Shown here: piece after piece, positions 1-50,200 of the stretch
Layout of the letters: each line of letters opens with the position of its first letter
Numbering within the stretch: the first letter of the stretch is position 1
Assembly (NCBI GenBank): GCA_000091205.1
Contig: AP006497.2
Length of the DNA stretch: 64,000 nucleotides
Source of the DNA: Cyanidioschyzon merolae
Lineage: Eukaryota
Reading direction: 5' to 3' (one strand)
Notes under the pieces: generated by a model
Seen by the model: only the letters and a program-made list of their open reading frames with translations
Told to the model about the DNA's origin: nothing
The model's database searches: none
Made by a program: the position numbers and the translations under genes

Positions 1-1014
1 GCAAGCGCTCACTGAAGAAACGCCACCGGGTAGGGCATCTATGCAGCGAACCATAATCCTCAGAGCGAAGTCTGGAGACTGGTGTGTGGAACACGGTGGA
101 TCTGGTGCGGAATGATATCTGCTTCCGTAAATGCCGATTGGAATCGAGACATTTAGGGATCCCCTATAAGATTCAAGGATCCTGCGCTACTGAAGAACAA
201 CTTGCGGGGACTCACCGAGGATCCATCGTCGTGTCCGAACGATCGCGGCGAAGGATGCAAACGCATGATCTCCCCAGTCACGCATAATGCCACGGACGGA
301 AGGTGCATAAGATATTTCGATTCCAGTTCTATTCGTGCACGCATGAGCTCCCTAGTCACGCATAATGCCACGGAGTAAAAGTACACAACGTATCTAGATT
401 CCGGTTTACTTCTTGCGCTTCTTGTTCATACTGTTGCAAGGCGAAATCGTCGGTGTTCGCAGTTATTCACGGGTATAACGCCGAAATTTGCGATACCCTG
501 ACGCTTACCGGTGGGCGGGAGCCCTCCTGTGGACACACTCGGCGATACTCGGTGCATGGGCTGTAGATCACAGGCGGACGATCGTTAAAGGTCGCTGTGA
601 TTTTAGTGTTGCCCATACCTCTACGCGTGGAAGTCATCCCCAGAGGGCGGCTCTCGAGCGCGCTGCCCTCGGTGACTCGGAGCGGCGCATGGTCTCCGCA
701 CTGGTAGCGATGATGCAGGAGCATCACTCGAGCGCAACCTGTGTACGCCCCTCTCGGGCACCAGTCTGCGTAAATCTACCAGAAAAATATTCGATCGTCT
801 CTGCCGTAGGTGTCTTGCTCGACAGTGCGGTCAGCGCGGTGCATTGGATGCGCGGAGCTGCCCCTGGGATGGTCCGCTTGGTTTCGGGTTGTGCGCGGGT
901 CTTCCAGTGACCCCTCGCGTCCACAGAAGCATCAGGCCGGTGTCACGTAGAGCGCTCCAGTTGCTGCGAGCCTGTGGATCCTGCACTAGCCGAGCACCGA
1001 CTGGGCGCTCAAGG

Positions 1015-2961
1015 TTACAGCGGGGATCGTCCAGTGTCTGTATCACGGTGGTAGTCGAAGGGCTCATTGAAAACGCATCCAACTTGACCCCGTAGATATC
1101 TCTCCATGAGATCCCTGGTTGAAGCGTTGAACTCTTCCGAAATGGGGCGGCCGAAGTAGCGGCTTTCGTTCAGCTGCTTTCGGACACGCTTTGCGAGCAC
1201 CTTTCCGAGTTCGACGCCCCACTGGTCGAATGAATTGATGTCCCAGATGAAACCCTGGACTGCCGTGCGATGCTCATAGAGCGCGAGCAACTGGCCAGTG
1301 GCGTACGGATCCAGCCTCTGCAGCAGCAGCGTCAGACTCGGCCTGTTGCCAGTCGTCACGAGATGCGGAATCAGCCATTCGGGGCGGCCCTCTGCACGAC
1401 ACTCCGCCGCTGTTTTGCCGTACGCCAGAGCATCTGGCTGGGCGAAAAAGTTCGCCATGAGCTCGTCTGCATTGCTGACCGGCTCACCCTCGATGCACAG
1501 CGGGTACTGGGACTCGATGAAGCCAATAAAATCGCAGGGTACCGTCTGCCCCATATGCAGCAGCTGGAAAAACGAGTGCTGGCCGTTGGTGCCGGGCTCT
1601 CCAAAGTCGATCTCACCGACCGCGTAGTCGACGTCGTCGCCGCGCAGCGTCACGTGCTTACCGTTGCTCTCCATGTCAACCTGCTGGATATGAGCGGGGA
1701 ACTTGAGAAGCGCCTCTGCGTAAGGATGCAGCGCCCGGCTCTTGTAGCCGAGAAAAGACAGGTTCCAGACGCCGAGAAGCCCCATGATCACCGGCAAGTT
1801 CCCCGCCAGCGGACTAGCAACGTCGTAAAAGTTCGCATCAACAGAGCGCGCGCCCTCTAGAAATCGCAGGAACGTGGGGAAGCCGTACTGAATCGAGAGC
1901 GGCAGCGCTCCGACCGCAGAGCACACGGAATACCTACCCCCGACCCAGTCCCAAAACTCAAAAGTGTTCCGCGGGTCGATCCCGAACTTCTCCACCATCG
2001 GCACGTTGCTGCTGCAGGCAACCATGTGGAGCCGCACGACCTCATCCGAGCGCCCCATTTCGGACCAGAGCCATTCGCGCATCGCCCGTGCATTCAGAAG
2101 CGTCTCCGCGGTTGTGAACGACTTGCTCACGATCACTATCAGCGTCTCCTCCGCCGACAGATCCTGCGTGCAGCGCTTGATATCCACAGGATCCACGTTG
2201 CTGAGAAAATGAAGGTGCCGCCCCCGCGCCGCCTCAAACGCCTCCGGATCCGTCCGAAACGCCTCGTGCACAAAGTCTGGCCCCAGATACGAGCCGCCAA
2301 TCCCCACAGCGATGACGCTGCGAAGCGGCTTCCCCGTGGCGCCGCGATGCTCCCCGCTGCGCACCCGCTCGCTGAACTCACGCACGTGATCGAGCACCCG
2401 CCACACGTCACGAACAACGTCCGTACCGTCGACAACAAGGCTTGCGTTCCGCTCCGCGCGAAGCGCCGTATGCAGCACGGCGCGCCGCTCGGTCACGTTT
2501 ATGTGCGCGCCGGACTGCATCGCGCGGATCTTATCCACCAAACGCGCACGACGCGCTAGCGCGAAAAGTAGCTCAATCGTATCCTTCGTCACCCGCTGCC
2601 GCGAGTAGTCGAGGTAGATCCCGTCATACTCAGCGCGCAGAGAACGCACGCGATCGACGTCCTGCATCAGCTCCCGCAGGTGCAAACGATCGATCTCAGA
2701 TGCATGCTCCACCAGCCGTCTCCACTCGGCAGTCTCCGAGATGAGGACGTAGTCGGTCGGCACCGGCAGTGGTGGCGGCGTTTCCGAAGGAAGCCGCCTC
2801 CCAACGGTGTAGCTCCCGCGAACGTCCCCCGCTGTGCAACGCGGAAACGCACGTCTCCGCAAAAGCCCAGCAGACCCGTGGTGCGGGTACAGCGCCCTGG
2901 ATCGGCGCGATCCAGCTACCCCACCCCGAAGCGGCCACCCAGGCACGACAAAGGCGCTCAT
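1015..2961 (-). CDS. PGI: Glucose-6-phosphate isomerase (PGI). The maximal ORF runs 1015..3336. The PGI-homologous domain starts at about aa 193 of that ORF, so the true start is probably an internal Met (for example codon 2959-2961), which leaves an Arg-rich presequence of about 68 aa.
   Basis: The translation carries PGI family signatures: [19 protein letters not shown], the SIS domains, and a C-terminal domain with [10 protein letters not shown]. The upstream part of the maximal ORF (3185-3336) is homologous to the 5' portion of the dispersed Fanzor-like repeat, so it is unlikely to be coding. Confidence 0.8.
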
Positions 2962-3159
2962 CAGGCGAACACTCTCCCAGCAAGCAAAGACCAGGTGCAC
3001 ACTATTGCGCACTGCACCGCGCAGCGAGCTTTCAACTGGCGTCCGCTTCTTGGGCGATTCGCCTCCGGCACGCGCGGCAGGCGGGTGCAGCTGCGAGGGC
3101 GCGGCCAACGGATCAGCGACTCGTTGATAGACTTTCACCTGAATTGCGTTCCATACGCA

Positions 3160-3720
3160 GGTGCGTGCCATCAACTGCTCTTTCGCCGCTGATGAGAGAC
3201 GCGTTCCGCGTGCGTGCCTTAGCAGAAATAAAAAATCTAGGGGAAGGTATGGGCATGGAAGTCGGAGATCAAAGGCGGTCGCCATGGCCGGCTTCTTGAG
3301 GGAAAGGACGAAAGAAATCCTGGTCTCGCCGACCATGGAGCGAAGAAGCGCAAGTGACGAAGAAGAAGAGAGGCACAGGGGCGGCAGGCGAGAAGAGGGG
3401 TTCGCCCGATGAGACTGCGACGAGACTGTACTGGGAGAGGGGGCACGAGATCGAGGAACTCTCGCAATATCGAGTTCATGCAGAGGAAATATAGAGATGG
3501 AGTTCGTGACCTGGGACCTCTATGCCGCCATCAATATCAGGGAATGTGCGGTTCTGGAGACGAGGCCCGCAGAGCCGACGCGATCCAGCATTGTGGGGCA
3601 GCCCCTGAGGCTTGAAGTGCACAAGGCGAAGCTGCAGCCGATGGCAGGGGCTGGTCAGGAACTGCTGGGAGGCGTCTGGGACTGGATATATATTTACCTA
3701 CCATGGTTGTGGAACATTTT
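3160..3720 (+). mobile_element. Truncated, internally deleted copy of the TnpB/Fanzor-like repeat family. It retains the 5' leader, the RuvC-III 'AAINI' segment and the 3' tail.
   Basis: Nucleotides 3185-3270 align with 51330-51440 and 63100-63180, including the shared TATGGGCATGGAAGTCGGAGATC leader. ORF 3497..3757 reads [36 protein letters not shown], which matches the NAAINIRRCAVLETRP... tails at 53361, 63441 and 38391. The terminal GGGAGGCGTCTG lies at 3667-3679. This copy has no transposase part. Confidence 0.55.
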
Positions 3721-4500
3721 TTTGTTTCGCTTATCTTACACAGTGCGAATTCCGTGATTAGAATTGGGATTCCTGGGCTGCGCAATAGCGGCCGAGGTTC
3801 TGGGGAGTGCCCACAGTTGCGCTCCGCGTATGGGTATGTTCCGCAAAACGGCTGATGCCATTCTTGCCGTTGAAATTTAGGGTTTGGTTAATTCCAACGG
3901 CGTCTTATTTCTGAGTGCCGAACGCGACGATTGCGCTCCCTGTGGCGCTGGGTACGCCATTTTCGCATCGGAGCTGTGCTCTACGATGCTTTGCGAGCAA
4001 ATGGACCTTGGCGGGACCCATATTCATAAACTTCGAATACTTTATATTCTGCACGCGAGTTCCTGATGGTTTTATCTGTTGGCGCGCGATTTGAGTTACG
4101 CGTTCCCAGGCTACTCGCTTGGCTCTAATTTCCGAAAAGACCTGGAATAGCTTTCGTTCATGAGAGACCCAAGCTTCTAGATTAGATCCTCTTTTCCTTT
4201 GACGAGAGCGTCGCTTGCAGTGTTTGAATCTTAGGGGACATATTCTGGTGCACGATGCTGTAGCTTCTGAACTCCCCGCCCCGAGCGCGGGCAATCGCCA
4301 TGACAGCAGATCACAGAACTTCGGAACCTAACAAGTTTTAATCTCTTTCTACTCATTCTTAACCAACGCGTCAGAGGTTTGAAGGCCTGCAGCAGCGAGA
4401 ATTTCTGGTGACGGGGCGCCCCGTTGTCTGAACACAAATGTCCCGCTACGTCCAAGATTTCACGCTCAATGGCTTTGTATGTGTTTCGTCGTGCATGGTA

Positions 4501-4897: not shown

Positions 4898-6922
4898 ATG
4901 ATCTGGGTCGTGGGAGCAGGTTTACTTGCAATATTCGCAGGAAGAAGCCTCTCGAGAAGGGGAAGGGAAAAAGATGATATCGCTCTGAGTACCGAGGAGC
5001 TTCACAAAGCGCCTCCGGCAGTTTTCCTCGAGTGGGGGGACGTGCGAGTGAAAGTTAAAGACAAGCGGCATCCTGCTGGACGCCTCATCTTATCCCATGC
5101 AAGAGGGGTTGCTCGACCAGGTCGAATTCTCGCAATAATGGGTGCTTCAGGTAGTGGCAAGTCCACGCTGTTGCGGGTACTGGCGGGCCGGCTCCCCAAC
5201 TCTGGTGCTTATTCCGTTCAAGGTTACTTGCGGATTCGCATTCGACAAGCCTCTCAGGCAAGGGAGCTCGTGGGGAATACTTCGAACACGGGAAATAGCG
5301 GCAGCACTCAAGCTCCTTTTCGGACTGCGTTTATCGAGCAGGAGGAAAGTTTCTTCTCGCAACTGACAGCTCGCGAGACGCTCGAATTTTATGCGGAGCT
5401 CTTGCTGCCCCGACGACTCAGCAAGAGCGCACGCCAAGCTTTTGTGGAGAATCTTATTTCTGAGCTTGGTCTCGGGCGCTGTGCTGAAACACGTATTGGT
5501 GATGCTCGGAATCCTGGTTTGTCTGGAGGCGAGCGGAAGCGCCTCGCCATCGGCTGTGAGCTTTTTGGTAGCCCGAGTCTCATTTTTGCGGATGAACCTA
5601 CAACGGGCTTAGATGCGAGTCAGGCGCTAAAAGTGATGGAGGTGTTTCGAAGACTTGCCGATGAAAGCCGGACTGTGATTGTGACCTTGCACCAGCCGAG
5701 GAGCAGCATTCTCGATCTCATTGATGATCTCATAATCCTCTGCGATGGTGAGATCGTATATGCTGGTGAGTACAGATTGGCTGCAGAGCACTTTGAACAA
5801 GTTCTTGGCCAACAGCGGCCTGCCGAGTCATCCGTGGCTGAGTGGCTTATAGATGAGGTTTCACCAGACCAGCTTCAACCTGAGCACTCACGTCGAAAAG
5901 TGTCGAAACTTATCGCAGCGGTTCCGATACATCTTTCGATCCCGTCTAATGAACTGGAAGGAACGAAAGCAGTTTCCGAGAGAGCTTTAAAGGTAAGGCT
6001 GCGGCCTGTGGTTCCGCTTCGGACACAAGCCCGGTTGCTGTTGCAGCGCGCCTGGCGACAGGTTTCGAGGGACTGGAAAACAAATTTGGCACGCTTGGGG
6101 TCAACAATTTTCTCAGCGCTTCTTTTCGGATCGATCTATTATCGCCTCGGTCTCAGCCAAGCCGCAGCTCAAGACAGGCTTGGTCTCTTGCAGGTTTCTA
6201 CCATCAATACAGCCATGTCTGCGTTGGTTAAGACATTGTATATTTTCACAGAGGAGCGTTCGATTGCATCGAAGGAGCGCGCGAGGGGAATGTATGATCT
6301 CTCTGTATACATAGCGACGAAGCTGTTGGCAGAAGCTCCCATAGCCGCGGCCTTTCCTGTGCTGTTTGGAATTTTGACGCACCGTCTCTGTGGTTTGCGA
6401 GCCACCCAGGGACGTTTAGGTCGATTCCTTGGCATGCTCACGCTCGAGTCATTCGCCAGCGCGGCCTTCGGGCTCTGCGTTGGCGCTATTGCACCCACAA
6501 CTCAGGCTGCAGTTGCAATTGGACCGGCACTGATGGTTATTTTCATCGTTTTCGGTGGCTTTTTTGTAACAAACCCCCCCTCGTGGGCGCGCTCTATTCC
6601 CGAGATCAGTCTTATTCGATGGGCGTTTCAGGGTCTCGCAGTGAATGAGCTTCGTGGACTCCGTCTGCAGAAGTCAAACACTGTTGGAGAGGCAGATACC
6701 GGTGATGCAATCCTGGCTCGAATGCAGATGAATAACGTCTCTCTAAGCAAAGCGTTCCGGCGGGAGAGCCAAATTCTCTTGGGGTTGTACGCGTTGACGC
6801 TCTCCATGCTGATGCTGCGGGAGAAGTTTGCATCAGAGAGCAAGCAGCTGTTACGTATTCAGATATCGAGTCCCGTGGATCAATTTATATCTGAGAGCGG
6901 CCCTTCAGACACTCGGAATTGA
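4898..6922 (+). CDS. ABC transporter, ABCG (White/half-transporter) type, with an N-terminal nucleotide-binding domain and a C-terminal ABC-2 membrane domain.
   Basis: Walker A is GASGSGKSTLLRVLAGR, the ABC signature is LSGGERKRLAIGCEL, and Walker B is LIFADEPTTGLD. An H-loop (LHQPRSS) and six predicted TM segments lie in the last 300 aa. The NBD-then-TMD order is typical of ABCG. Confidence 0.85.
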   Translation: MIWVVGAGLLAIFAGRSLSRRGREKDDIALSTEELHKAPPAVFLEWGDVRVKVKDKRHPAGRLILSHARGVARPGRILAIMGASGSGKSTLLRVLAGRLPNSGAYSVQGYLRIRIRQASQARELVGNTSNTGNSGSTQAPFRTAFIEQEESFFSQLTARETLEFYAELLLPRRLSKSARQAFVENLISELGLGRCAETRIGDARNPGLSGGERKRLAIGCELFGSPSLIFADEPTTGLDASQALKVMEVFRRLADESRTVIVTLHQPRSSILDLIDDLIILCDGEIVYAGEYRLAAEHFEQVLGQQRPAESSVAEWLIDEVSPDQLQPEHSRRKVSKLIAAVPIHLSIPSNELEGTKAVSERALKVRLRPVVPLRTQARLLLQRAWRQVSRDWKTNLARLGSTIFSALLFGSIYYRLGLSQAAAQDRLGLLQVSTINTAMSALVKTLYIFTEERSIASKERARGMYDLSVYIATKLLAEAPIAAAFPVLFGILTHRLCGLRATQGRLGRFLGMLTLESFASAAFGLCVGAIAPTTQAAVAIGPALMVIFIVFGGFFVTNPPSWARSIPEISLIRWAFQGLAVNELRGLRLQKSNTVGEADTGDAILARMQMNNVSLSKAFRRESQILLGLYALTLSMLMLREKFASESKQLLRIQISSPVDQFISESGPSDTRN

Positions 6923-7419
6923 CAAGTCCTCTGGAATACACTTATCCAGATCGCATACAATCGGAATCAGCTGATCACTGGCGGACTGTTTTGGAAACGA
7001 TTGTTTCTATTTCGCTCCAAATGGACGCGCTTGAAGAATCCGACCAAATCGGTTGCATCAATGTAATCACCAAATGCTTGTGGAACGGAGAAGCAACTGA
7101 AAGGGAGCTGAGATTTCTGACTGGTAACCAGCGATATTGGTGCGACAGGCGGAATCCAGGTTATTTCACCCAACCACAAAAACATAAACAGATTCTTGCT
7201 CTGTGTGAGCGACCTTCACCCGATCCCACTGTGCGGCTTTTGCCGAGCTTCAACGAGATTCCTGCATTCTAGATGGTGACTGTTGGACGTGAGCAACGGA
7301 ATAGAGACTTCAAACTCCAGCGACAGTGGTCACGAGCGTGGTGCTCCGGAAGCGAAAGGTCCATGTGATGCTGGAATTTTTCATGGCCTTTGATCCAAAA
7401 CACATGTCAGTAAACGGAA

Positions 7420-8900
7420 AAGTTTCGCTATCAAGGAGTGCGTGCATATGCCGACGCGCAGAAGCCTCCCAGCCTTTTTGCCCGACACTCTGCAAATGGC
7501 TTCAGTTTCACCACAGACACTTCGAGCCTGAGACGCTGTCCCACAAAGTTTGCTGTCGTCTGCTCCTCGAGTCTCGTCTTCAGCATCGCATACCGTCCGA
7601 TGTTGAAGGCGAGGATGAGGTCTCGGTTCATGAACTCCTTGCGTTTATTGCCTCTTGTGGAGCTCAACTTTGTAGGGATTCCTAGAGACGACGCCCTTGG
7701 TGCCACTGCAGTTTTGTTATCGTCCCGTTGGGCAAACACTTTTTTCTCGCCTATCTCCCTTCATCATCTTCTGCTCCTTCGTCACTTGCTCTTCTCCGTT
7801 CGATGGTCGGCGAGAAGAGGAATTTTTCGTTCTTTTTGCCCTACTCGGGGATTATGGCTTCTCAGGATCCTCTACTTACGTTTCCGTCACTTTCCCTAGG
7901 ATTTTTCATTTCGTCAAATGAACGCAGTTGTCTATGCCCTTGGGTTGGTACATTCCCCGAGCGAGAAGGACTTGAGGAGGATGGACGACTTGTGTCCAGG
8001 CGGCACCGTTTGGTAAGAGCGTCACCGATTGGTCTTTGAGCGATCATTATTTGTCACGATAGAAAGCACTGATTTGATGGGGTTGAACCTCGAAGCGGAC
8101 AGAGGGATCAAAAGCTGCTCTAGCCCGATATAATCGACATAAGCTCGTACGCAAGATGGAATGCGAAGTGTCACGTGGTTCAATAGAGAAACGTCTGCAG
8201 ACGTGAGGAAAAGTCTTCAGTGATTCGGCAAAGTGGGTTCTGTTGTATGAGTCCTCTGAACGAGCGAAACTGAGGCCGCCATTTGGATCCACTTCATCTA
8301 GAGAAGAATACGATATCGTTGTTCTCTGCGCATCCGATTGTACATATACCGGGCTGCCTACTCCGCGAATACGCATATATGCTCCGACAGTTTCATCCGG
8401 AGAAATTCTCTTCGACTGAAGAAACAAACCGACGTCCTCATACCTCATTCCGATCGCAAAGTTCCAGAAACGCTGAAGTCGCGATTCGCTGGAAGGTGGC
8501 CGTGCTTGAACCAGAACTGTTATCTTCTTGGCTGTATTCCAGTGTTCTCAGGACAAGAAAAACACGCTGATGAGACAAAATGACGTCCGTGGCGGATACT
8601 ATCGTCGCTTCTGCTTTTCCTAAAGTGATCAACGGGTTGTTCTGTAGCATAGACCGCAACTGCACTTTGAGAGCATGGCGTTTTCGCGCAGAACGAATGC
8701 ATGCTTTTTTCAGTGCTCCTCACCCATCTGAGTACTGCAATATGACTGATCTGACGGAGAAATGCAGCCTTAGTTGCAATATTCAGGAAAAAATATCCTA
8801 CGGGCAATTCGTCTTCGATCTATAGGGTTATATCGCATCGTAATCTCGATCTCCTGCGATACACCACAGCGGGGTCGAACAAAACTGAGTTGAAAGACAA
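7420..8900 (-). mobile_element. Decayed composite copy on the minus strand: a mariner/Tc1-like transposase pseudogene (HTH plus DDE-type fragments) followed by an internally deleted TnpB/Fanzor-like 3' module.
   Basis: ORF 8438..8665(-) reads PLITLGKAEATIVSATDVILSHQRVFLVLRTLEYSQED, which aligns with the HTH region at 37442 (PLDHIFLKAKAMIVARMGVSVSQQLVRLALKTLGYTREKD). ORF 8047..8448(-) reads DETVGAYMRIRGVGSP...SLKTFP, which aligns with the DDE core at 62600-62830. ORF 7431..7739(-) reads LILAFNIGRYAMLKTRLEEQTTANFVGQRLRLEV..KLKPFAECRAKRLGG, a degenerate NAAINI tail. The reverse complement of 7460-7476 gives the terminal GGCTGGGAGGCTTCTGC. Confidence 0.55.
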
Positions 8901-10417
8901 TAATAAAACAGTGATCGTATCAGATCAACATGGAATGCAGAACTCATTGCTCTGTTCCTGCCTTACCATTCTCTTCCGAACATTTGTTTGTATGTTAACC
9001 CTCGACATTCCAAGTGTATCGATCAAGGCTTCCGCATTCGCGAACAGTTTCAGGATCCTAAGTCGCCTCCTCGGAGTGGCTCCAACGCTTTCGCGCTGAT
9101 ACTCGTTACCTCAACTGATTCAAAATGATTCGAGGCGCATTCTAAAACTGGTTCTTCATATAAGCCACACTATTATCCATCTCATAAGAACAAACATGTA
9201 GTCTTCGCTTTTCTGTATGAGAAAGACGCTCAAATCAGGGATTCCTAAAATTTTCGATCGCTCCACTTCAAGGCAACTGTCGGGCTTTGCAATGCGCTTC
9301 GCAAAATTGACGAGGAAAATAATTCGACATCATTCTTTGACGACTTTTTCATAAGCTCATGCCAAAGGCTCACAGAAATATGCACATCAAGTAACCGATT
9401 CCGTCCAACGGCAAATTATCCGCTCTTTGTTACCACCCACGAGAAGGAACTCGACACTGGTACGGCACCTCTCGTGGGATATGCTCTCAGAGGCTACCGT
9501 CTGTTGAGTTTACTTGGAAATGGTTCTTGGACTCTGAAGTGAAGAATCGCAGCGATTTCTTCCAGTGGAGTGGTCGTCATCTTTTTGCTCGAACGGAGCC
9601 TAGACGGATCGAAACATCTCGACTTTTTCTGTAACTTGGATATTCCTTTTGGTACTTGTTTAGACAAGGACAATTTCTAGCTCCACAAATCCTCTTTCGA
9701 GTGGACGGCGTTCACATCAGTATACATGGAACAACGCACTCGCCGAAGGGAGTCGCCCAGAAGAAGCCCGTGATCGTAGTGCACGGCGGCGAAGGCGAAA
9801 ACGGTATGGGACACCAAGTGCAGTCTTCTGTGCCAATTACAAGCATGCACTGTGTAATGAAAGAAGCCCTAGAGCGCCACAAGGCGCCTACTGTCCCCGA
9901 GGCGGAGTGGTGGACAGTTTTGAAAACCCGATAACATTCAAGAGTTATCCCTAACAGGGTCGCATGAACACTGTACGCGAAATGGACGAAAATGGCAAGC
10001 GAAGCGTGAATCGCTTGCTCTAGCTGTTTATGAAATGCGTCGACAACATCTTGGAGCGGTGAGATCGCGATATGAACGTGGTCATCAACATCCATCTACT
10101 CATGGCGAGGGCGCTGGAAGGAAAGGAGATACTGGCGCGTTTCAGACTGGATGTATGAGATAGAAAAAGAAACCAGTGGCTCTAAAGGCCTAAAATGACT
10201 TTTGTTGATTAGGATGGGACGTGGAACAGACTTAAGAGTGTGCGCCTACGTTAGAGAATATGTTTCGTTTCATTCTGGAAAGCGTCTAGTTCGAAATCCA
10301 CTCAAATCGTCAATTCGGTATCCAATTTGACCGCCTCAGTAACGCTGGCTACGCCGCGGCGCTGTGTAGAGATTCAACTTTGTTTCGATACTGTCGCTTG
10401 AAACGCTCACGAGAAAG

Positions 10418-24929: not shown

Positions 24930-25210
24930 GCTAAACTTCTATTCGAAGCCTCGATTCGAGCGTATAACTTGCCAAAGTGTCGTTCTGGTCTTCCATCTCT
25001 ATTTTTTTCCTGGGTACTGCGGAAAGACTGACCTGGGAGAGGAATGCAGTCCCCCTAGTACTGTCCAGGAAAGAATATATCCTGCAGGCAATTCTTCAAA
25101 GATCTATGGGCTACATCGCACACTGTTTTCGATCTCCTGCTCGATACCGTATCGGAGATGGAACAAGAGTAAGTTGGAAGACCATAAGACCGCTTTCTTT
25201 CGAGTGCTTC
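24930..25210 (+). repeat. Dispersed non-coding repeat, copy A of two in this window (the other is at about 31000-31290).
   Basis: Nucleotide similarity to 31000-31290 is extended but gapped. The core GAGGAATGCAGTCCCCCTAGTACTGTCCAGGAAAGAATATAT (25039-25080) matches GAGGAATGTAGTCCCCCTTGCACTGTTCCGTAAAGAATATAT (31113-31154), and both flanks are conserved (for example CTATGGGCTACATCGCACACTG versus CTAAAGGGTACATTGCATCGTG). Neither copy has a consistent ORF. Confidence 0.5.
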
Positions 25211-29871: not shown

Positions 29872-30999
29872 CGCTTACCCGTAAACCTTTGGGTCAGACG
29901 TTCAAGCGCCCGCACTCACGATGCCTGCACGACGCGGGGGGCGCAAACCAGGTTCCTGCCGTCTACCTCCTGATGCCCTGTCTTCAACAAAGTTTCCTAC
30001 CTTGGCACAACGTAGGTGCTCTCTCCGATCCTTAAGTCGGTGCAGTGGACGTATCAGCACCGGTTGGTCGCGGATGGAGCTGGACCCCAAACCGTGCGGA
30101 AACACGCCGGAGCACGTCGAGTCTGAGGGATATTCGGGCGTGACTTGACCAACCGCAAATTGATCCAAAAAGCGCAAACTCTCACACACCGCGGAATTCC
30201 AAGAATTTTGCATGAAAGCACTTAATCGCACGCCTAGCGAAACTGGTGCGGGCGACACCAAAGCGCGCTTTTTCGCGCCCAGTCGCGTGCCGCAAAGACA
30301 CGCAGTGAGGGGCAACACGCATGCGCATGTCCGCTGACTACGTGTCCGCATTGTGGCGCGCGCTTTTTCCCGCTGCTTCCCGAGCGTGTCGATTCATTCG
30401 CTTCACGAACTTGGAAAAATTGGCAGAAAAGAACCATTACCTGGCAACCCGATAACAATTTGCTTCCCCCTATACTATAAGCGTTCATAAGAGAAAGTTT
30501 CCGTATTTTAGAAAGATCATGGTCCAGACGGACAGTTCCGCGAGCCGAACGAGTCTGCCGGGTAAGTGCTCCGTGTCGCCAATGGCGAAGGCTGTAACGA
30601 GACACGGGCAGCCCGTCCGCAAGCTGGTTTATTCTGGGACTAGGGTAGTTAGGCTGCGTCTGGGAATCGCGTTTAGCGCGGTGGCCTCCTAGCATATCGT
30701 TTCGCGCTGCCGCAGGTGATACGGGTGTCTATGCAGCTTGCACGCTACCAGAATGCTGATAAACCTGACCCCATGTCTGGTGAACTACCTGTCGAGCTGA
30801 CGCTCTCAGTGGTATGACAAAGCCATACTGTCTCTGTGCCGCATCCGCGCCTACGGTAAAAGTGCTATGGTGGGGTACTCACGATAGGCACTTGGCGCTC
30901 GATAGAGCGTATGAAACGTTCAGTACATCTGAAAGGAAGCATAAGTAATGCAGCTTGGAAATGGGAGGAACGGCGAATGTGTTGCCGTGTGCTGATATC

Positions 31000-31290
31000 A
31001 AGCCCACAGTCGCGCATCTCTGCCGTGTGTAAACTTTTTGTCAAATTATAATCGTCTTTGTTTCATCCTTCTCCAAATATCTGAGTACTGTGGGATCACT
31101 CAAAATTGAAGGAGGAATGTAGTCCCCCTTGCACTGTTCCGTAAAGAATATATTCGTACACGCATTTCATTTACCATCTAAAGGGTACATTGCATCGTGA
31201 TTTCGGTCTTCCGCTATACATTGCGAAAAAGCACTTTATTGCACTCCGTGGGGTGAGTTAATGTTGATTTCAAAGACCATAGGCGTTACA
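31000..31290 (+). repeat. Dispersed non-coding repeat, copy B (homologous to 24930-25210).
   Basis: See copy A. The same orientation and a shared core of about 300 nt with indels support a nonautonomous TE, SINE or MITE-like element rather than a chance match. Confidence 0.5.
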
Positions 31291-34200
31291 GGCTGCGTTG
31301 CTGCATCCGGGAATAGAATAGGACCATATTTGCCAACAGGCTGTAGCAGCGATTTTCGCAACCAGCTACTCGATGAACTTTACTGAAGCCGCGTATTCAT
31401 GCGGCATCAGAGTGGAGCTCACGCACCTCGTATATCGCAAGGCGATGCGACTCGGATACAAAAATGACAGAGAAAAATGAAACTTCTTCCTTTTGATAAA
31501 TGGGATGTACGCATTATAGTTTGCGCCTTTTCTAATTGTCCTCAACATCAGCCTTTTGCAAGCTTATTCTTCGACCGTTCTTTTCTTCTATATCCGGCTT
31601 TGAACACTTCTTTCTCTCCTTTCCCTCCGGTTTCGTCGTCAGCAGTCCATGGGTGAAGGACGCAGGGGTAAAGTACCGAATTCGCAGCTTCCGGCTGTTA
31701 TTATTCATGCATTTCATGCACAGGTGGCAGTTGCTCTTGATCGATCGCTTGCAGTCGGCAAATACTTCGGAGACAGCCTCTGTGCGCCGGCTGCAGCTGT
31801 GCCAATGGATTGCGGTTGAGCGTTCCCACTCGTCCACCATATGTCGTCCACGGAGTGCCACCCGGTGGCACCTCAATGATTGCTTTATCCTCGGTATATG
31901 TCCATGAAGGGTAAAGACGGCTCCTCAGGAAACCGTACACAGTTTCCCGGTCCCGCAACGTGCCCCACGCTCACCTGCTTCCTCAGGGCGATCCTTCGGA
32001 AAGTTCCTTGTCCGCTGCACGCGTAAAGCTTACACAGTCCCATTTGATACAGAATTTTTGGAACGCAATGTTGTCCATGATGAGAGGGGCATCAAATGGA
32101 AAGTCTGGGCTCATAGTCGAGTCGTGAAAATTCGATTCGTCTACGCTCTTATCGCGCAAAGCTGAGACGCACTGTCGACTGGAACAAATGGCTGCAATGA
32201 CACAGACCCGGGCCCAGGACGCTTTTCCACGCAATAAGAAGAGAAAAGTGCATCTGATAGCATACTCTGTAAGGGTGGTATGCTGCTGTCGTGTCCTGTT
32301 TTTGTCAATGTGCGTGAAGAGCGGAGGGTTCGTCTTTCGCTTAGAATCATGTATTTGAGGAAAAATTTTAGTGAACTTGTGGCATGAGTTTATGACGAAA
32401 TCTCCAAGAAACGGCGTCAGGCTTTTTCGTTTTCAATGCACTGGTGGTGATCGCTGCGCCAACGACGCTGCTGCAAACGGAAAGGGCGAAAACCTGAAGA
32501 ATGCTTGATTTTTTTAGTGCATACTACGCGTAAGTAGACGAGAAGAGAGGTGTCTCGTTCGTACGCATCGGACAATATCATCTGTCATTTTACGAACGCT
32601 TGCCCGCAGGTGTCACAAATCACCTTGGTGCAGGTGACGTTCGGAATTCCAGCTCCAAGGAGTCAAATGTGTCACTATGAAAAACTGACCGAAGATACTG
32701 GGAGCATACGTAAATCGGTACGCCTTCACTGCTGCACTTCGATTTTTGAGGTTGCGCAAATGAAATAGCTCTGAAAACTATCAAAAGGCAGTAAAAGAAC
32801 GAGTATATCCATGTTCCATTACAATCTGATACGCGAAAACGCGGACACATCGCTGTCAACAACTGCAGACGAGCCGAAGCACCCGGCGGGTGCATCGCTG
32901 CGCGCCAAATTCCTCTGCATGCGCGTGCGGGATTTGTTCTCCCGAGCGAGTGCCTGATATCTGCCGCTGCAACGCGGTGGGACTTTCCCAGAGGGAGCTC
33001 GCTTCCTCTGGAACTGAGGCTCTCGAACCTTGAGGATCATCAGAGATCCTTGCATAGAGACCTTCTTGAATTTGAGCAGCAGATTCGTGGCGATCTGGCT
33101 GCGTTGGAGGGCGCAATGCTTGGTAAATTTCGCGCCTTGCTTGCCTTTCTGAAGAAGAGCTCCGTTGTCGGTGCTTCTAGCCAAACGGAAGCTGTCGGGG
33201 CGTCGAGAGTCCTGGCCACAATTCGACCTGCTTGAGAGATGCGGTTGGGAACGTCCGTTACTGCACGCGAAGCGCTGAAGCGCAAGCGGAAACAGCGCCA
33301 CCGAGCGGTGTGTCGACACCGTGTTTCACGTGTTCAGGCCAACTAGATCGTGATCGATATTCCCGTTGGATTTGAGAGTTTCGCCTCGCACTGGCTCGAG
33401 TGGAGCGAGCTCGTGAGGAGCTCGCGAAAAGACTGGACATGGTCGAAACCACGACCGCAAACCTAGTGCACATGGTCGAGTCAAGAGCCCGTCGTTTCGG
33501 CCCAGGTGGCCGCTTCGCGGCAAGCGGCGACGCCTGGAATGAAATATTCCAAAAGGACGGAACGAGCTCGCGCGTTCAGCTGTACCTATTGCGTATGATT
33601 GACGGTGTCGAAGAAAAAATAGCAGGTATGGTCCGCGACCAGGCAACATGCTTTCGACGACCATGAGGTGTCGACTGCAACAACCAAGATGCGATAACGA
33701 GTCACACGAAATCAGGCGCCTTCGAACGACGAAATCCTGAGACATTACAGTTTTTTACGGCAAAAATCTATTACTGCAGCGTTGTGTACGTGGTTATATC
33801 GAATAATGGAACATTACGGTCGATTAGCAATTACCGAGGAAAATTTTTCACGGCGTACGTGCAAGGCGCTTCAGACGTTCTGGATAACTGACCATACAAT
33901 TGAAATGCGTTGCTCCGTGAGAGAATCCGATGCTCGCTCCGCAGGCCAAGAATCCTTTTCACCGCACTTCTTCCGCATTGGAGCAGAATTTCCATATGGA
34001 ATACTGAACGACTCCCTCGCAAGTATGCATGACAGAAAGCCGCTGAACGATCCGGAAGCACATGACTCTTCCTGATTTTGATCGAGGCGTTTAAGCCGCG
34101 GTGTGAAAAGTGCCTGCGCACGTTTTAGCTGGTGGAATCAGACCAGAATAATCAGGTAGTTTTTGGTTTCCTTGCAATCTGACACTCATTCAGCCTACCG

Positions 34201-37199
34201 TACACTATATCGTAAATCCGTATCTGTTTCAAGCTCTTTTTCTGTATCTGTTTCTGTGTGCACTCGTGCCCGTGATGTGTGAATCTCACTCCAAGCTCAT
34301 CGACAAGAATCAAACAGAATCGATCCCCGCACTAGTTGTAAGCTTTCGTGTGCGGAGCCGGCATGCAACATTTGCGCGCTAAAGCACGTCCAGCGCCGCA
34401 AGATACCACCACCGAACGACGTGACATATATATATCTATCCATTTCTAACTTGCAGTGCATTTTGGTCGATGCACGCTTCTTGCATGCGCACAACTGACT
34501 CTGCTTGCGAACCAAGCACGCTCCCTTGTACTCGTGCAAAAAATCGTCCGTTTGAGTCAGTTGGACTCTACGGAGTATAAGTTTAACGCAGACCGATCTG
34601 CTCGATTCGATGCCCAGAGCGTCGAGATGGGTTCCGACCCGGCCACTCGACACGCTGGTATATCTCCTGACGTCCTGCGTACCCAGCTCTCGCTGGTACG
34701 GAGGTCTGGGAAAACTGAATGCCTGCACCAGCTTTCCTTTCAGGTCTTTGGGTTCGGCCCCTTGGTTTGGAGATGCGGCGCTGGTTTTGACGCCTTCCAA
34801 CCTGGGATCCACGCCAAACACAAACGCTTGCTTTTCGCTTACCTTGAAGGGTTGAAAATGAGTGTCGTTACTCGACTCAGGCTTTGTCCTCAAGACTTTG
34901 ACAAAGTACACGTAGACTGATATTCCGTCGGCCTCCACCGTCGCTGTGGATTGCTTTTTATATTCTCCCTGTAAAGGAGAAAGCTCCGATTCGCTCCATC
35001 AATGCTGCTCGACGTTGTTCGAATGCTTCATATTTGCTCTTAGAAACCGGCCGTGGCTCACCGACAACGCCATACACTGGACGAGTGTCTACGATGAGCA
35101 TACGGGCTCTGATGAAAGATATCCCAATAACGTCGCATAGACACTTCAGGAAGCCATGGAGCTGGGATTCACAGAGCAGTTGTGCCATGCTCTTGCGGGC
35201 TCTGTTCAGGAACACTTCGAAACGCAAAATCCGAGGAATGTAGGCATCCCGTTTCACCGATCGTTTGGATATCACGTCCGCCAGTTCTGGGGAAAGGCTA
35301 TCACAATGAGTTGGAACTGTACGAAGCTACCCATATTCTCGTTGAGACATCTCTTCTGAGCTCGCTACCATTTCGAACGTTCCAGGTATCAGCTCTGGAC
35401 ATGATTTAATCGACGCACCCGCGATCGTTTTCTTCAGTATTCACCTTTCTGAACCAGTAACGTGAGGCTACGATACCCACAGTGTGATCCTAATGAAGCG
35501 CTCTAGACTAAACCGCATCTCACTCCGGTTTTTGAGGTCTGCTTGATACTTTTTCAATCTGGTTCTATAGACTTTTATTCCGATCGATGCGGCACCGCGA
35601 AGACTCGGGCATGCTGGAAAGCGTTCCAGCGAATCTCGGATCCTAGTAACAGGCAGTGATGCATCTTTAGCCCCGGGAGTCAGCAGTGCTCCAACATGAA
35701 GGCTAGATCGAAAATTTCGAGGGGAATATAGACAGCTCGTCGTCCTACGTCCCGTACTCGTGCGAAAATCTGTTTGACGTGGTGCGTCCAGGCAAGGGAA
35801 ACTGGGCTAGGCTTCCTCAAGAAAGCTGCTACGCAATCCCTACTGGCGCCATCTGTAATATGTTTTGGAATATTCTCTCCAGTGATGAGATTGAATACGG
35901 AGCCATTGAAAGCGCTCTCAGACTGATTTTGCGGCGCCGACATTATTCCCTTCCAGTGAATCCTCATCGTCGTGGCTGGAGGGTCTTTCTCTTCTTTGCC
36001 GGGTGGTTTCCTCTTCTTCTCCTTCACACGGTGGAATGCCATGGATGTGATTGCGTTACTCCATATCGATTTGGTTCCCTTGAGATTCAGACACATGGGG
36101 AGAACGACCGGTACAAAGCTCGCCTTCCCTACGAATCTATCCACAGCTATCAAATTTCCTTTTGTCACTATCTCTGTTGCGAGCATGTCCACGATCTGTA
36201 GTGCTTTTTAGCGTCCCATCACGCATAAGAGCGGAGGAGTGGCACGCTGGTTCGTGGATGATACAGGGTAAAAACGACTTGAGAGAGAACCGTGGCATGG
36301 ACGCGAACGACTCCTGAATTCATCCACAAGCGCACATGCGACGTTAAACAACATCGATGACGCCCTCAACTGCAATAAACTGGAGAGAATAGGTTGAAAC
36401 GAAATATAGCTCAACGCCTGTCTCAGCTGCATGTCGTCCTTTGTGTTTTGTAAAGGAAAGCGGCCATTTCGAAAAGTGAGAAAGACTAGTGAGGCGAAAA
36501 GCCCCGAAGTGCGTCGGCGACGAGTCCAATATGTGATGATGGTATCCTTTTTAGATTTTGTACACTATCACATGATTCGAATGCCGGTTGGACTTCTATT
36601 CCAGGAGTGCTGGCTTGTTTTGTGGTGATGGACATCGGGTTGACTTCTTCCACCGTCGAGTGACAAGCAGAATATTTCTCCCGCATGAATTCTCATCGAG
36701 TGAGTCAAACACCATTCTTTGCTGTCATCAGCGTTCACATTTGAGTACGAGATCCATTCTCTGTGCTTCAACACTTGACGGTCTCCTGTGGAAGCACAAT
36801 TTTCTCTTTTATCTATCCGTATCTGTTCATTAGCGGTCGATTCTGCGGTAGAGATCCTCCATATCCTGTGCCTTCTTAGATAATAATTCCAAGAAAACGC
36901 AGTGAATAGAATGAACCAACAAGGTTAACAACATGAAGGTAGAGTTTGATTAGTTCTGTTTTGGTGTAGAGCGTTTTGGATAAGGACTACGAGATAGGTG
37001 GCTCATCTACCAGGTGCCTGAAGAATTACTGAGTTGTTCATTTCGAACCTTTCGCGCCAAAGCTGTCAATGAAAGAATAAACTGCTGCCGCGACCGTTCT
37101 CCGTATTAGATGATATATTCCTTATGTTGAGAGCATTCGATAAAAACAAAAACAAAAAGTTCATGCACGTACGGGTGTTCAAGGGACACGCTAATTTCA

Positions 37200-38550
37200 T
37201 AGTCCTTCAACTCAGGATTTTTCACGCCCGCAGCAGTGCATAGCAGGAGATCGAAATCACGATACAATGTATTCTATAGACCATTGATCACTTGCCTGTA
37301 AGATATATACTCCTTACAGAACAGTGCCTGGAGGACTCCATTCCTCATTCATCTCAGGCATATCACAGTACTCAGATGAACGAGAAACACTCAAAGAAAC
37401 AAGAACAAGGGCTTCGCGTCGAAAACCGGTATTCTTAACAGGTGCTTGCGGTCAATGGTAGAAAACGACCCCTTGATCATATATTCCTGAAGGCAAAAGC
37501 GATGATAGTTGCCAGGATGGGCGTCTCTGTTTCTCAACAGCTTGTTCGTTTGGCCCTGAAAACACTTGGATACACTCGCGAAAAAGATCCCTATTTCACG
37601 CACAGCCATCGTCCACCAAAGTCGCGACGACAGCGTTCCCGGAACTTCGTTATCCATATGAAGCAGCGGGACGTCAATTCATCCTCGTCGCCGAGACTTG
37701 CTTCAGACGATACGGGTGGAGCGTATATGGGTATTCGAGGAGCAGGGCGGCCGTTGATAATACGGCCGAACTCGTGGAGACCGAGGACGTTATCAACTGT
37801 TCTGGCTGCAGTGGATTTACATGGCGGCCCCAGTTTCGCTCGTTGAGAAGCCTCATGCAATAGCACCAGCTTCGCCTTATCATTGACGACTTTTCCATGA
37901 CGTGTAGCGACGTCATTCTACTGGACGACATAGCATTTGGCCATTCCCATCGCGTTCGATTTTTTGGAGATCCTGTCCGGGTAGAGCTGCTCTTCAGTAG
38001 TCCGTTCTCTATGTGGTTCAAACGCATCGAAGAATGGTTTATTCTACTGAAACGTAATGGTCGCTCAACTCGTCGATTCGCTGAAGCGCTCAGTTCGGAG
38101 ACATCGGGACACATTTTTGTCTTTTTCCCGCAAGTGCTTTTCCCTCCGGGAAGGTCCTTACCTAAGGGCATCAAGAATTATGTTCATTTCAAAATGCTAT
38201 GGGATGAGTTGGGGTGTACACTTCAGAAGTTCGATATCGAGAAAAGCCAGCGGAACGCTTCGGCTATTGAAAAGTATGGAGAGCTGACCGAGCCGCAAAT
38301 GGCACCGAGGACACGAGTTCGAGGACTCTTTGCATTGGCAAGTTTAAGCGGCGTCATGAAAAGAATTAAATTCGTACGTCGAGACCAGAACGCCGCCATC
38401 AATATCGGGAGATGTCCTGTGCTGAACACGAGACCCGAGGAGCTGAGGCGAGACAACCTTGTGGGGTAGCCTCTCGGGCTCGAGTTGTACAAGGAAAAGC
38501 TGAAACTGATAGAAAGAGGCTCGTCAAAAAGGGATGGGAGGCATCTGCAC
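37200..38550 (+). mobile_element. Composite element copy: a mariner/Tc1-like transposase pseudogene (HTH plus DDD core) read through into an internally deleted TnpB/Fanzor-like C-terminal module.
   Basis: The left-end nucleotides 37215-37440 align with 62130-62365. ORF 37442..37846 has an HTH (MIVARMGVSVSQQLVRLALKTLGY) and the first acidic motif (LASDDTGGAYMGIRGAGRP). ORF 37897..38469 begins ILLDDIAFGHSHRVRFFGDPVRVELLFSSPFSMWFKRIEEWFILLKRN, the second D and D/E motifs of Tc1/mariner. It continues in frame to EKYGELTEPQ...VRRDQNAAINIGRCPVLNTRPEELRRDNLVG, with the NAAINI at 38391-38406. The terminal GGGAGGCATCTG lies at 38535-38546. Confidence 0.6.
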
Positions 38551-39245
38551 AGGAGTTTTCATTTACTCTTCTTGGGCGTTGGACATAGTTTTGATTCACT
38601 GGCGATGATATGTCTAGTATAACTCTTTCGCTACACGCATGTTCCGAGAATTTCCGCGAATCCGGTTTTGTCCGTGATCAATTTTATGGGATCAAAATAC
38701 ATTGGTCAGATAAGAGAGCTTTTAGTTGGCTGCTAATGCTGAAGGTTCATTTGATCTCTTGAATGCAGCAGATTAGATGCTTATTTCATAAAACCTCTGC
38801 TGTAGATCTTAATTTCGGTGGGTTCTTGCGATGGAAATAGTGGAGTATGTTGTATCGAAACGGTATCCGCGGAGTGCCCAGTTGAAAGCTCGACGCTTGA
38901 TGGTAAGTTTTCGACGCTTTGAATTCGGCAGCTAGGGTCGTGAAAGAGTTTGTGCTGGAGAGAAAGCGCGCATATTCAGCGGAATGCAACGAGGCACAAA
39001 ACGCCCAGAGCCGACCATTGCAGAGATCGGAGGCAACTGAGCGTGAACGTGTTTATTCCACAAGCGCCTCTGTACTACAGCCTCAGGTGAGCGCTCGCTG
39101 AATTGCTCACTGGCGGCAGCATCTCATCGTATTTAGATGCCGTTGGATCGCAAGCGGGTCGCAGCGCCAGAATTGACTCCCAGAACGACGCCCAACTTGA
39201 GAACCTCATTTTGATTCAAGTTCAACACGGAAACTTTATGTACGG

Positions 39246-42325: not shown

Positions 42326-42490
42326 AATCCACATACACTCTTGTCTTGGGACGTATAGTCTCTGATCTCTGCCCTATCAAGTGGCACCAGAGGTTGTAGC
42401 GCATGCAAATCCACATACACTCTTGTCTCGGGATGTATAGTCTCTGGTCTCTGACCTATCAAGTGGCACCAGAGGTCGTAGCGCATGCAA
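42326..42490. repeat. Tandem direct repeat, two units of about 82-83 nt.
   Basis: Unit 1 (42326-42408) and unit 2 (42409-42490) are about 90% identical (AATCCACATACACTCTTGTCTTGGGACGTATAGTCTCTGATCTCTGCCCTATCAAGTGGCACCAGAGGTTGTAGCGCATGCAA). The repeat lies about 370 nt 3' of the EF-G gene. Confidence 0.7.
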
Positions 42491-46829: not shown

Positions 46830-47075
46830 GAAATCCAGGATGTACGGTACTGCAGGGTGGACAAGCTTTCAAATTCGGGGCACGTTGCTGTTTTTCAAAG
46901 GATCAAACGCTGGATATCCAGTTGTCTAGGTCCAAAACCGGTCCAAATTCGGTGTACATCGCTGTTGTTCAAAGGATCAAAAGCTGAATATCCGGTTGTT
47001 TAGGTCCGAAACCATCCAAATTCGGTGTACATCGCTATTTTTCAAACGATCAAAAGCCGTGTATACAGTGATGCA
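46830..47075. repeat. Minisatellite, about 3.3 tandem units of about 74 nt.
   Basis: Unit 1 is TTCAAAGGATCAAACGCTGGATATCCAGTTGTCTAGGTCCAAAACCGGTCCAAATTCGGTGTACATCGCTGTTG at 46894-46967. Unit 2 at 46968-47041 is about 88% identical. Partial degenerate units lie at 46830-46893 and 47042-47075. The overlapping ORFs 46693..46929 and 46697..46987 are artefacts. Confidence 0.75.
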
Positions 47076-49163: not shown

Positions 49164-50040
49164 AGAGGCAGTTTATTGAGAGTTATAGCGCACAAGGCGT
49201 GTGAAAACTGGCGGAGCGCACCGCAGGCGTCAGCGATGCGAAACAGCCGGTAAAGGACGCAGATGAATTCGTGGCCGCAGGGACGCGCAGCGCCATGGCG
49301 GCACGCTCGGACGCTGTTGCTACCAAAAGCAGGGGAAGCTCCATGCCGCAGGCCCTGGAGGGTTCCCCCAATGCAGCCCAGATGATGCACACCGTGCAGC
49401 TAGATGCACTCTTCTCCCATGCAGCATAGTCTTATCTTCCAGAGGTACATCGCACCGAAGCTGGTGTGGCGTCCTCGGTTGCACCAGCTGCGGGGCGACG
49501 TCTGCGAGAAACTCTTCAGTGCGTACGATTGTGGAATACTGAACGCACCTGGTTTCCATTTGCCAAAATGTCAAGACTGTCCAGGTATAATTCATGTGAA
49601 GAACAGGATATCCGTTTGGTTCATTCGAGGCTTGTCTCCGGAACGGCTTCGAAATGAGACCAATCATCGTGATCGGGGCAGATCTGTGGTCTCCATGTGA
49701 ATGGCGATACCTGCGGGCGGGGCTGTTGCAGCAGCTTGCAAAGAATGAGACGGTTCCGTTTTTGTAAATGCGTGTACAAGACGGGTCTCTCGCAGAGCTC
49801 GAGAACAATATCGCGTACGCTATCGTAGCGTGGTTGATCATGCAGGCATCGTGCGGATGCACTTCGCCCATCGAAAGACTTCGCTGCGCATATCCGTGCC
49901 GGGCAGGGGAGCAGAATGCTATCGATACTGGCTCGGTGTCCTCATTTGCTGCTTCGGCTTACGGAGGCAGTAGCGAATTGTGCACGGGATCGATGTTGTC
50001 GAAAAGAGCGCCTCTGCGATGAGGCGACCTGAGACATTGA

Positions 50041-50200
50041 ATTGATATCGGGCAAATCCATTCCCAGCGGGCAACTGGAAGTTCGACGCTCGGCAGCGGG
50101 ATCTCGTGGAAGGCAGTACCCGTAGCAGCGATTTGATATCGGGTAAATCCATCCCCAGCGGGCAACTGGAAGTTCGACGCTCGGCAGCGGGATCCCGTGT
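50041..50200. repeat. Tandem direct repeat, two units of about 68 nt separated by a 23-nt spacer.
   Basis: Unit 1 at 50041-50108 and unit 2 at 50132-50200 both read TTGATATCGGG[C/T]AAATCCAT[T/C]CCCAGCGGGCAACTGGAAGTTCGACGCTCGGCAGCGGGATC[T/C]CGTG, about 94% identical. Confidence 0.7.

Follow-up and report, generated by a model that had tools for sequence, protein, structure and literature searches.

DNA transposons are known to give rise to non-autonomous derivatives by internal deletion, as exemplified by Ds from Ac, KP from the P element and the miniature inverted-repeat transposable elements (MITEs). Transposons may also carry a Fanzor1 nuclease gene as a passenger, and Fanzor1 elements of the Mariner/Tc1 type have been covered in two studies (Bao & Jurka 2013, PMC3627910; Jiang et al. 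2023, PMC10530073), the published cases showing clear 24-33-nt terminal inverted repeats (TIRs) and TA duplications (Bao & Jurka 2013, PMC3627910, Additional file 1). In Cyanidioschyzon merolae the family CMe-1A comprises about 150 copies, approximately 80% identical to a 3,169-bp consensus; it has no TIRs, its 5' 635 bp correspond to another element, TE-N2_CMe, and its classification was given as unknown (Bao & Jurka 2013, PMC3627910). In the present study we have analysed a stretch of 64,000 nucleotides from contig AP006497.2 of C. merolae (hereafter the window) and in particular its segment 3132-3746, named D3. This segment very probably represents a shortened, non-autonomous derivative of a DNA transposon with a Fanzor1 gene, in a decayed copy. 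The CMe-1A/CMe-1 family, the presence of Fanzor1 inside Mariner/Tc1 elements and internal-deletion derivatives as such are already known; new are the short sub-family described here and the linkage to a DDE_3 gene, which is seen in a lineage sister to this as yet unclassified family.

The internal deletion and its probable inheritance

The initial annotation of this region had remarked that the NAAINI segment follows the leader of the Fanzor-like module after about 280 nt in the copies at 3 kb (D3) and 63 kb (A63) and after about 1.9 kb in the copy at 51 kb (E51), and it had proposed one precise internal deletion inherited by several copies. Counted from the ATG of the leader, the (N/Y)AAINI codons follow after ~270 nt in D3 (ATG at 3249, motif at 3515-3538) and after 276 nt in A63 (63153 and 63429-63446), as against 1,943 nt in E51 (51413 and 53356), in agreement with the spacing first reported. 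The proposal depended on the short copies being collinear with the long one, and collinearity was found on both sides of a single gap. Aligned to a profile of 43 full-length relatives, A63, D3 and a third short copy on the opposite strand, B7, each fall into two blocks whose order is that of the profile, with the 5' block ending at profile position 192-199 and the 3' block starting at 2181-2186. The 73-91 nt between the blocks resembled filler at first; a profile made from the short copies revealed their homology with the 5' side of certain full-length copies, as at 5400-5423 (ACACGAGACTATGACGGGACGGTAGTGGTA) of the metagenome locus L004. On this short-family profile the 5' halves of the full-length copies reach positions 275-278 and their 3' halves start at 272-282. 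MAFFT alone spread the ~165 nt that separate leader and tail over the length of the long copy, and the profile alignments resolved their placement.

In the coordinates of CMe-1A the junction connects ~nt 1068 to ~nt 2836. The deletion amounts to ~1.77 kb (~590 codons), and RuvC-I and RuvC-II have been lost with the rest of the nuclease body. The reading frame is maintained across the junction, codon ~54 (...DEMVV) being joined to codon ~645 (ERRAKVRGLLALV...) to read ...DETVV/AQRARVLGILAMV..., and the majority consensus of 8 short copies contains an uninterrupted open reading frame (ORF) of 159 codons from the leader ATG to the stop region of the family. Over 20-25 nt the two parental sites show imperfect similarity (GACGAGA..TGG), which suggests that slippage or microhomology-mediated joining made the deletion.

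The same junction is present in A63, B7 and D3 and, outside the window, in five metagenome places and ten metagenome ORFs. Four of the metagenome places (L030/L031, L040, L042/L043 and L061/L076) cover the whole short profile, and L081 covers the junction while being incomplete; ten short copies (those of the window, L030, L040, L042, L061 and L081) align collinearly across the junction and up to one right end that they all share. The consensus mini-ORF, used as a query, retrieved at least 10 further short ORFs with the fusion ...DDDETVVAQRARV..., the shared junction reading ...DDDETVV/AQRARV...; among these, P0172 is identical to the ORF of A63 and occurs on 17 JGI contigs. The idea of one internal deletion inherited by several copies was thereby supported and extended, from three copies in the window to those of the metagenomes.

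A neighbour-joining tree of the 3' block (~250 columns, no bootstrap) places the short copies, the copy C38 and the full-length locus L005 in a clade apart from the CMe-1A-type copies including E51. The right ends show the same division: downstream of the common ...GGGAGGCGTCTGCAC, L005 and the short lineage have their own ~70 nt, ending in the hairpin GTGAAACgTTTTTcGTTTCAC followed by TGA, whereas CMe-1A has a different 77 nt. On the evidence of the tree and the right ends E51 is not the direct parent of the short copies, which group with the L005 lineage and differ from E51 in the right end. C38 represents a second, independent deletion with different breakpoints on both sides, and it keeps ~100 nt (HELGCTLQ...EEQM) that the other short copies have lost. 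Independent deletion therefore does occur in this family, and the imperfect similarity of the parental sites could favour repeated slippage, so that the short copies might be independent fragments or deletions which look alike through, for example, recurrent breakage at a fragile site. We regard this as very improbable, since the junction, the diverged ~75-90 nt before it and the right end of non-CMe-1A type are all common to the short copies, the clade described above unites them, and the one copy that is demonstrably independent, C38, does not have their breakpoints. The coordinates of all copies are collected in Table 1.

Table 1. Fanzor-related copies in the window and parts of the copy D3
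Feature	Coordinates	Strand	Remarks
D3 (element under study)	~3132-3746	+	Short Fanzor copy without DDE_3
D3, left terminal region	3132-3184	+	Common to full-length elements and L068; aligns to E51 51299-51350
D3, leader	3248-3270	+	ATG at 3249, MGMEVGD...; family consensus M-x-x-x-V-x-D-P-G-G-P (also MxxEVxDPGGP)
D3, purine-rich tract	3340-3373	+	Glu/Lys-rich in family frame; short-family consensus SSEEEQVTKKKKKRGDRR
D3, deletion junction	3425-3445 (~3434/3435)	+	5' side ...DEMVV (codon ~54), 3' side ERRAKVRG... (codon ~645)
D3, retained 3' part of ORF (last ~85 codons)	3441-3678	+	Long-copy profile 2183-2424, E = 4e-27
D3, RuvC-III remnant	3515-3538	+	DLYAAINI; family NRDFNAAINI
D3, right terminal region	3679-3746	+	Covered by the short-family profile up to 3746; also from 10 aligned short copies
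D3, decayed terminal hairpin	3709-3731	+	Consensus GTGAAACgTTTTTcGTTTCAC then TGA
B7: DDE_3 relic and shortened Fanzor	7376-8901 (Fanzor part 7.4-8.0 kb)	-	A63/D3 junction; start codon now ACG
Isolated Fanzor ORF fragment	34068-34413	-	Strongly decayed, neither element end; profile 1938-2289, E = 5e-13
C38: DDE_3 relic and differently deleted Fanzor	37199-38614	+	Start-codon region ~38204-38210 joined to CMe-1A nt ~2737
E51: full-length CMe-1A-type Fanzor1 pseudogene	50518-53601	+	First ~630 nt TE-N2_CMe-like; boundaries from 80 related loci
A63: DDE_3 relic (62160-63032) and shortened Fanzor	62160-63657	+	Leader 63152-63174, junction ~63342/63343, NAAINI 63429-63446

Relation to CMe-1A and to Fanzor1 nucleases

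The assignment of the family follows from the long copy. Compared with the published CMe-1A consensus, taken from Additional file 2 of Bao & Jurka 2013 (PMC3627910), E51 (window 50518-53600) aligns over nt 5-3168 at 80-86% identity, and 80 metagenome loci have the same sharp left end (...CGAT/GACAAAACGTTTAC...) and a right end just past the terminal hairpin; thus E51 is a CMe-1A-type pseudogene. The short copies align to CMe-1A over nt 2840-3092 at 70-75% identity, A63 additionally over nt 898-968 (78%), and the profile of 43 relatives matches all the copies of the window. Translation of E51 in three frames (51300-53620) yields the motifs GADPG, VDEFRTS and NRGLNAAINI, interrupted by several frameshifts and stops. 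In intact relatives the RuvC triad is complete, with D in GADPG, E in VDEFRTS and D in NRDFNAAINI, while in E51 the Asp of RuvC-III is replaced (NRGLNAAINI vs NRDFNAAINI). A complete triad is absent from the copies of the window, and the short ones, including 3160-3720, keep the region of the third motif only. Judged by these motifs, the window copies are Fanzor1 family members by descent and not functional nucleases.

The stitched conceptual protein of E51 has 47 homologues, mostly from JGI metagenomes and 50-78% identical; searched as a single sequence it remained without a match in PDB and local Pfam. With 12 relatives combined in a profile, the PDB sequences yielded SpuFz1 (8GKH and 6 more entries; E = 2.1e-6, profile positions 213-578), the solved Fanzor1 of Spizellomyces punctatus, with the motifs IETDG, DPG, DEFRTS, vRGLL and nRD aligned. 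The precomputed database annotation is PF26935/DUF8286. Scanning of metagenome contigs produced 419 relatives, some of them with long or intact ORFs, and no relatives were found in the viral contig collection that was scanned. A family of this size could supply thermo-acidophile Fanzor1 nucleases for testing.

These homologies also bear on the direction of the change. If the short form were ancestral, the long form would have been produced by an insertion of ~1.8 kb into a small gene; the in-frame structure of the junction is compatible with such an event, and nothing else speaks for it. The long protein shows homology to Fanzor1/TnpB along its length, to the left and to the right of the junction alike, as seen in the SpuFz1 alignment, the short ORF holds only the RuvC-III part of a three-part active site, and the more distant relatives, including a protein of Gonium pectorale, are long. 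We therefore consider an ancestral short form hardly credible.

A coding unit of 75-79 nt (KHE.EK.A.PATQ.VQDND.VV), located just before GADPG (window 52549-52627), is single in E51 and occurs 2-5 times in relatives (P0001, P0006, P0011), representing copy-number variation inside the ORF. In the loci L052 (2466-2570) and L063 (3596-3700) two CMe-1A-type elements stand head to tail, ~40 nt apart. Solo elements of the TE-N2_CMe type, 75-76% identical to the first 635 bp of CMe-1A, are found on the minus strand of the window at 59109-59739 and 30424-30959.

Leader, reading frame and retained 3' part

A leader shared at the nucleotide level by three copies had been reported, and this was confirmed: the pattern TATGGRCATGGAAKTCGRGRATC (<=3 mismatches) occurs at exactly three sites of the window (3248-3270, 51412-51434 and 63152-63174), all of them on the plus strand, and in 0 of 100 dinucleotide shuffles. 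A fourth, degenerate leader at ~7887-7865 on the minus strand has its ATG mutated to ACG. The ATG is kept in 36 of the 43 full-length copies, and the leader matches the N-terminus of the published CMe-1 protein (MEKEVEDPGGPVSPAAG; MEKEVEDPGGPVSPAAGKKRKTVPSPEEQEKTKKQK; MEKEVEDPGGPVSPAAGKKRKTVPSPEEQEKTKKQKREARRQRLQERRQYDEMVVK), the intact-frame full-length copies beginning with MKKQVxDPGGPxSPAARKKQKTVPSPEEKEEKK.RKGEALRRRRQERRLYDEMVVK. The leader consequently represents the beginning of the Fanzor1 ORF, its start codon together with the coding sequence of the N-terminus. It had been suggested that it might hold the start codon, a promoter or a cis element needed for mobilisation; of these possibilities the first is the correct one. 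Nor is the leader the terminus of the element, whose left end lies ~115-135 nt upstream of the ATG.

Downstream of each leader a purine tract is present (3340-3373, ~51495-51517 and 63242-63286), as had been described, and the accompanying statement that it encodes poly-Glu in each copy did not hold. In the family (consensus) frame the tract of the 51 kb copy reads SKEEQKKKK, and that of the 63 kb copy reads EEEQVVKKKKK; the tract is rich in Glu and Lys, the frame that leads on into the protein giving Lys. The EEEE reading is confined to the ATG frame of the 51 kb copy, and this apparent poly-Glu arises because the A-run before the tract has, compared with the family consensus, a +1 frameshift leading into the alternative frame. 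Lys/Arg-rich N-terminal stretches occur in the family (AARKKQKT..., EEKKDRKGEALRRRRQERR, and KKKKK in the short family), and characterised Fanzors have disordered N-termini with nuclear localisation signals (PMC10530073); the purine tract probably belongs to such an N-terminal nuclear localisation region. The A-run itself, placed just after the leader (GGAAAAAAAC; window 51455-51475, loci L003-L085), is a frameshift hotspot at which many full-length copies switch to the alternative frame (...SAESRRKGREEE...).

The short ORF, which is open in the consensus, is broken by early stops or frameshifts in every short copy compared at the DNA level. Divergence of the short copies from their consensus is 0.20/0.22/0.23 at codon positions 1/2/3, and pairwise identity is flat along the short element (0.64-0.73) with no segment better conserved than the rest. 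The long copies served as a control, with 0.103/0.098/0.131, values that are valid for the first 452 codons only as the consensus loses frame in an internal tandem repeat and that give a weak hint of past selection.

From these data we weighed whether the short element has been kept or amplified, through selection in master copies, for something that it retains. In one version this would be the 3' guide-RNA gene and the right end, full-length Fanzor proteins acting in trans on a short element that keeps the omegaRNA/fRNA gene; in the other, an in-frame mini-protein made of the nuclear localisation region and the C-terminal ~90 aa (RuvC-III part) would modulate Fanzor activity. Truncated transposase products of deleted P elements act as regulators. 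The in-frame deletion with its intact consensus of 159 aa and the few nearly full-length metagenome ORFs speak for such retention. The guide RNA of known Fanzors derives from the 3' region abutting the right end, with conservation extending into the ORF, and Chlamydomonas has solo copies of the guide RNA (PMC10530073). Folding of single sequences gave, for the minimum free energy, z = -2.7 for the 3' part of the CMe-1A consensus, better than its shuffles, and only z = -1.8 for the short-family tail. Other results speak against it: Rfam recognised no family in the long copy (scanned over 50400-53800), RNAalifold returned a weak consensus for 25 full-length tails (-13.9 kcal/mol, covariation term -0.6) and almost no compensatory pairs for 34 full-length tails, and the short copies, broken throughout, display neither codon-position bias nor a conserved sub-segment. 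A retained function is unlikely in either version, although for the guide-RNA gene the folding data speak neither clearly for it nor clearly against it.

Transposase context and comparison with known systems

The conceptual translation of 62351-63032, upstream of the leader of A63, matches Pfam DDE_3 with E = 7e-13. A decayed gene of this Tc1/mariner type, with the motifs FAVDET..., LDNVAFHHS and PPYAPWLNRID, lies upstream of the leader in A63, B7 and C38, and tblastn located a DDE_3 relic also upstream of the short Fanzor in L081 and of the full-length Fanzor in L068; none is present in D3 (3132-3746) or E51. This gene is a candidate transposase for the Fanzor1 family, and the linkage may classify the CMe-1 family, unclassified so far, as a Tc1/mariner passenger. 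D3 and the loci L040, L042 and L061, which are without DDE_3, begin ~115-135 nt upstream of the ATG, and their flanks differ upstream of ~3115-3130. These unrelated flanks of dispersed short copies are the sole, indirect evidence for transposition of the short form. The left terminus of D3 (3132-3184) is 77% identical over 53 nt to L068 2894-2945, with a score of 34 that exceeds those of all 200 shuffles; DDE_3-bearing and DDE_3-less forms therefore share an end. Fragments of ~100-150 nt similar to the 5' region of the DDE_3 element (37233-37377) occur in inverted orientation at 25010-25141 and 31079-31224.

The preserved left terminus also matters for the possibility that the short form is a processed copy, in which the missing segment was spliced out and the transcript reverse-transcribed and inserted. 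The genome is eukaryotic, and the CMe-1A consensus has a GT near the 5' breakpoint and an AG near the 3' breakpoint; the observed junction (GTAGTGG/CACAGAGGGC), however, is not at those GT/AG positions, the non-coding left terminus is kept together with, in several copies, a complete upstream DDE_3 gene, and there is no poly(A) tail. A processed origin has, in our view, next to no likelihood.

Regarding the ends, the terminal hairpin exists in two non-isosteric versions, AACGTTTTTC-TTTT-GAAAGGCGTT and CGTTCGA-CTT-TCGAACG (loci L011-L085, window 53570-53601 and 3709-3731), and the decamer TTTCA(A/C)CTGA is found near both ends of the short element in direct orientation. A model with TIRs and TA duplications was dropped, end homology being significant only for L068 vs D3, L068 vs E51 and B7 vs CMe-1A. 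A pattern anchored on the right-end hairpin had no match in 4 of 5 copies, and no long TIRs were found around the 51 kb element.

Several observations do not sit easily with a single deletion in a mobile element. Neither TIRs nor target-site duplications were established, the comparisons of left and right ends being mostly not above shuffles and the flanks decayed. The same junction appears in two upstream contexts, DDE_3-linked (A63, B7, L081) and DDE_3-less (D3, L040, L042, L061), which calls for either another deletion event or recombination within the family. In the neighbour-joining tree the full-length L005 is nested among the short copies, so that these do not form a strictly monophyletic group, and the argument for a single origin consequently rests on the shared junction and not on the tree. 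The junction itself can be placed no more closely than about +/-10 nt, the two parental sites being alike, and nearly full-length mini-ORFs exist in metagenomes, namely P0168 (160 aa), P0170 (152 aa) and P0171 (143 aa).

With these points taken into account, we still favour a decayed, non-autonomous derivative and propose the following course of events. The deletion would have arisen once in an active copy, perhaps between the imperfectly similar 20-25-nt stretches, and a transposase, encoded in trans or in cis, would then have produced many copies of the shortened element; the DDE_3 gene directly upstream in several copies would be the obvious candidate for it. All copies would since have drifted neutrally, leaving a segment presumably without present function.

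The window is gene-dense and intron-poor, with eukaryotic housekeeping genes, among them those for MCM, MutS, an EF-G-like protein, SHMT, phosphoglucose isomerase (PGI) and coproporphyrinogen oxidase. Its MCM9 protein has 53% identity to the best named match, from Cyanidium caldarium, 71% to an NCBI/JGI protein and 99% only to assemblies of sequencing runs, in keeping with a red alga of the Cyanidiophyceae type. The longest ORF of PGI (1015-3336, minus strand) starts at 3336 inside the transposon relic, with the PGI domain only from residue 243, and therefore gene callers may over-extend the N-terminus into repeat DNA; further Met codons are available at residues 18, 56 and 126. The right end of E51 is situated only 16-33 nt upstream of the first ATG of a branched-chain aminotransferase ORF (53634-55037; window 53601-53634), and the short-read assembly contig of this locus begins inside the repeat, at window ~53488. 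In practice the relics should be masked as CMe-1-type repeats, given that the longest PGI ORF starts in one and that short-read assemblies break there. Short tandem duplications, which have no relation to the Fanzor copies, are located at 261-406, 42326-42490, 46870-47057, 50039-50199 and 63711-63834; their units measure 54-115 nt and are 81-94% identical.

The segment most likely reflects the ordinary decay of a known transposon, and its weight for biology at large is little, as both the CMe-1A Fanzor1 family and the process of amplifying a deleted form are known. Compared with CMe-1A, the left end (CGATGACAAAACGTTTAC...) and the right end (...TTTTGAAAGGCG) of E51 are the same, long TIRs are absent in both, and the N-terminus (M..EVEDPGGPVSPAAG) and the C-terminal NRDFNAAINI are in common. 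In contrast, the short copies form a sister lineage with another right end, and some members here possess a DDE_3 transposase gene, none having been reported for CMe-1A (PMC3627910). The Mariner/Tc1 elements with Fanzor1, PUl-1 and PGv-1, have the same arrangement as A63, B7, C38, L068 and L081, in which a DDE-type gene is followed by Fanzor1 in the same orientation within one repeated unit, and as with PUl-4, a Fanzor-only element with Mariner TIRs, transposase-less derivatives exist here too. The copies studied here differ from PUl-1 and PGv-1 in being ~30% diverged from each other and in that TIRs and TA duplications were not established. Chlamydomonas reinhardtii has 20 extra fRNA copies that are highly conserved and whose RNA has been detected (Jiang et al. 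2023, PMC10530073). The resemblance to such solo fRNA/omegaRNA copies consists in the 3' end of the ORF being kept up to the right end with loss of the nuclease; unlike those of C. reinhardtii, the copies here decay uniformly, and no conserved structure was found in them by RNAalifold or Rfam. The closest likeness in process is to Ds, KP and the MITEs: one internal deletion has left both ends, in DDE_3-less copies of ~620 bp, the deleted form appears to have been amplified, and the junction is inherited by the descendants, with the difference that the gene deleted here is that of the passenger nuclease, Fanzor, and not that of the transposase.

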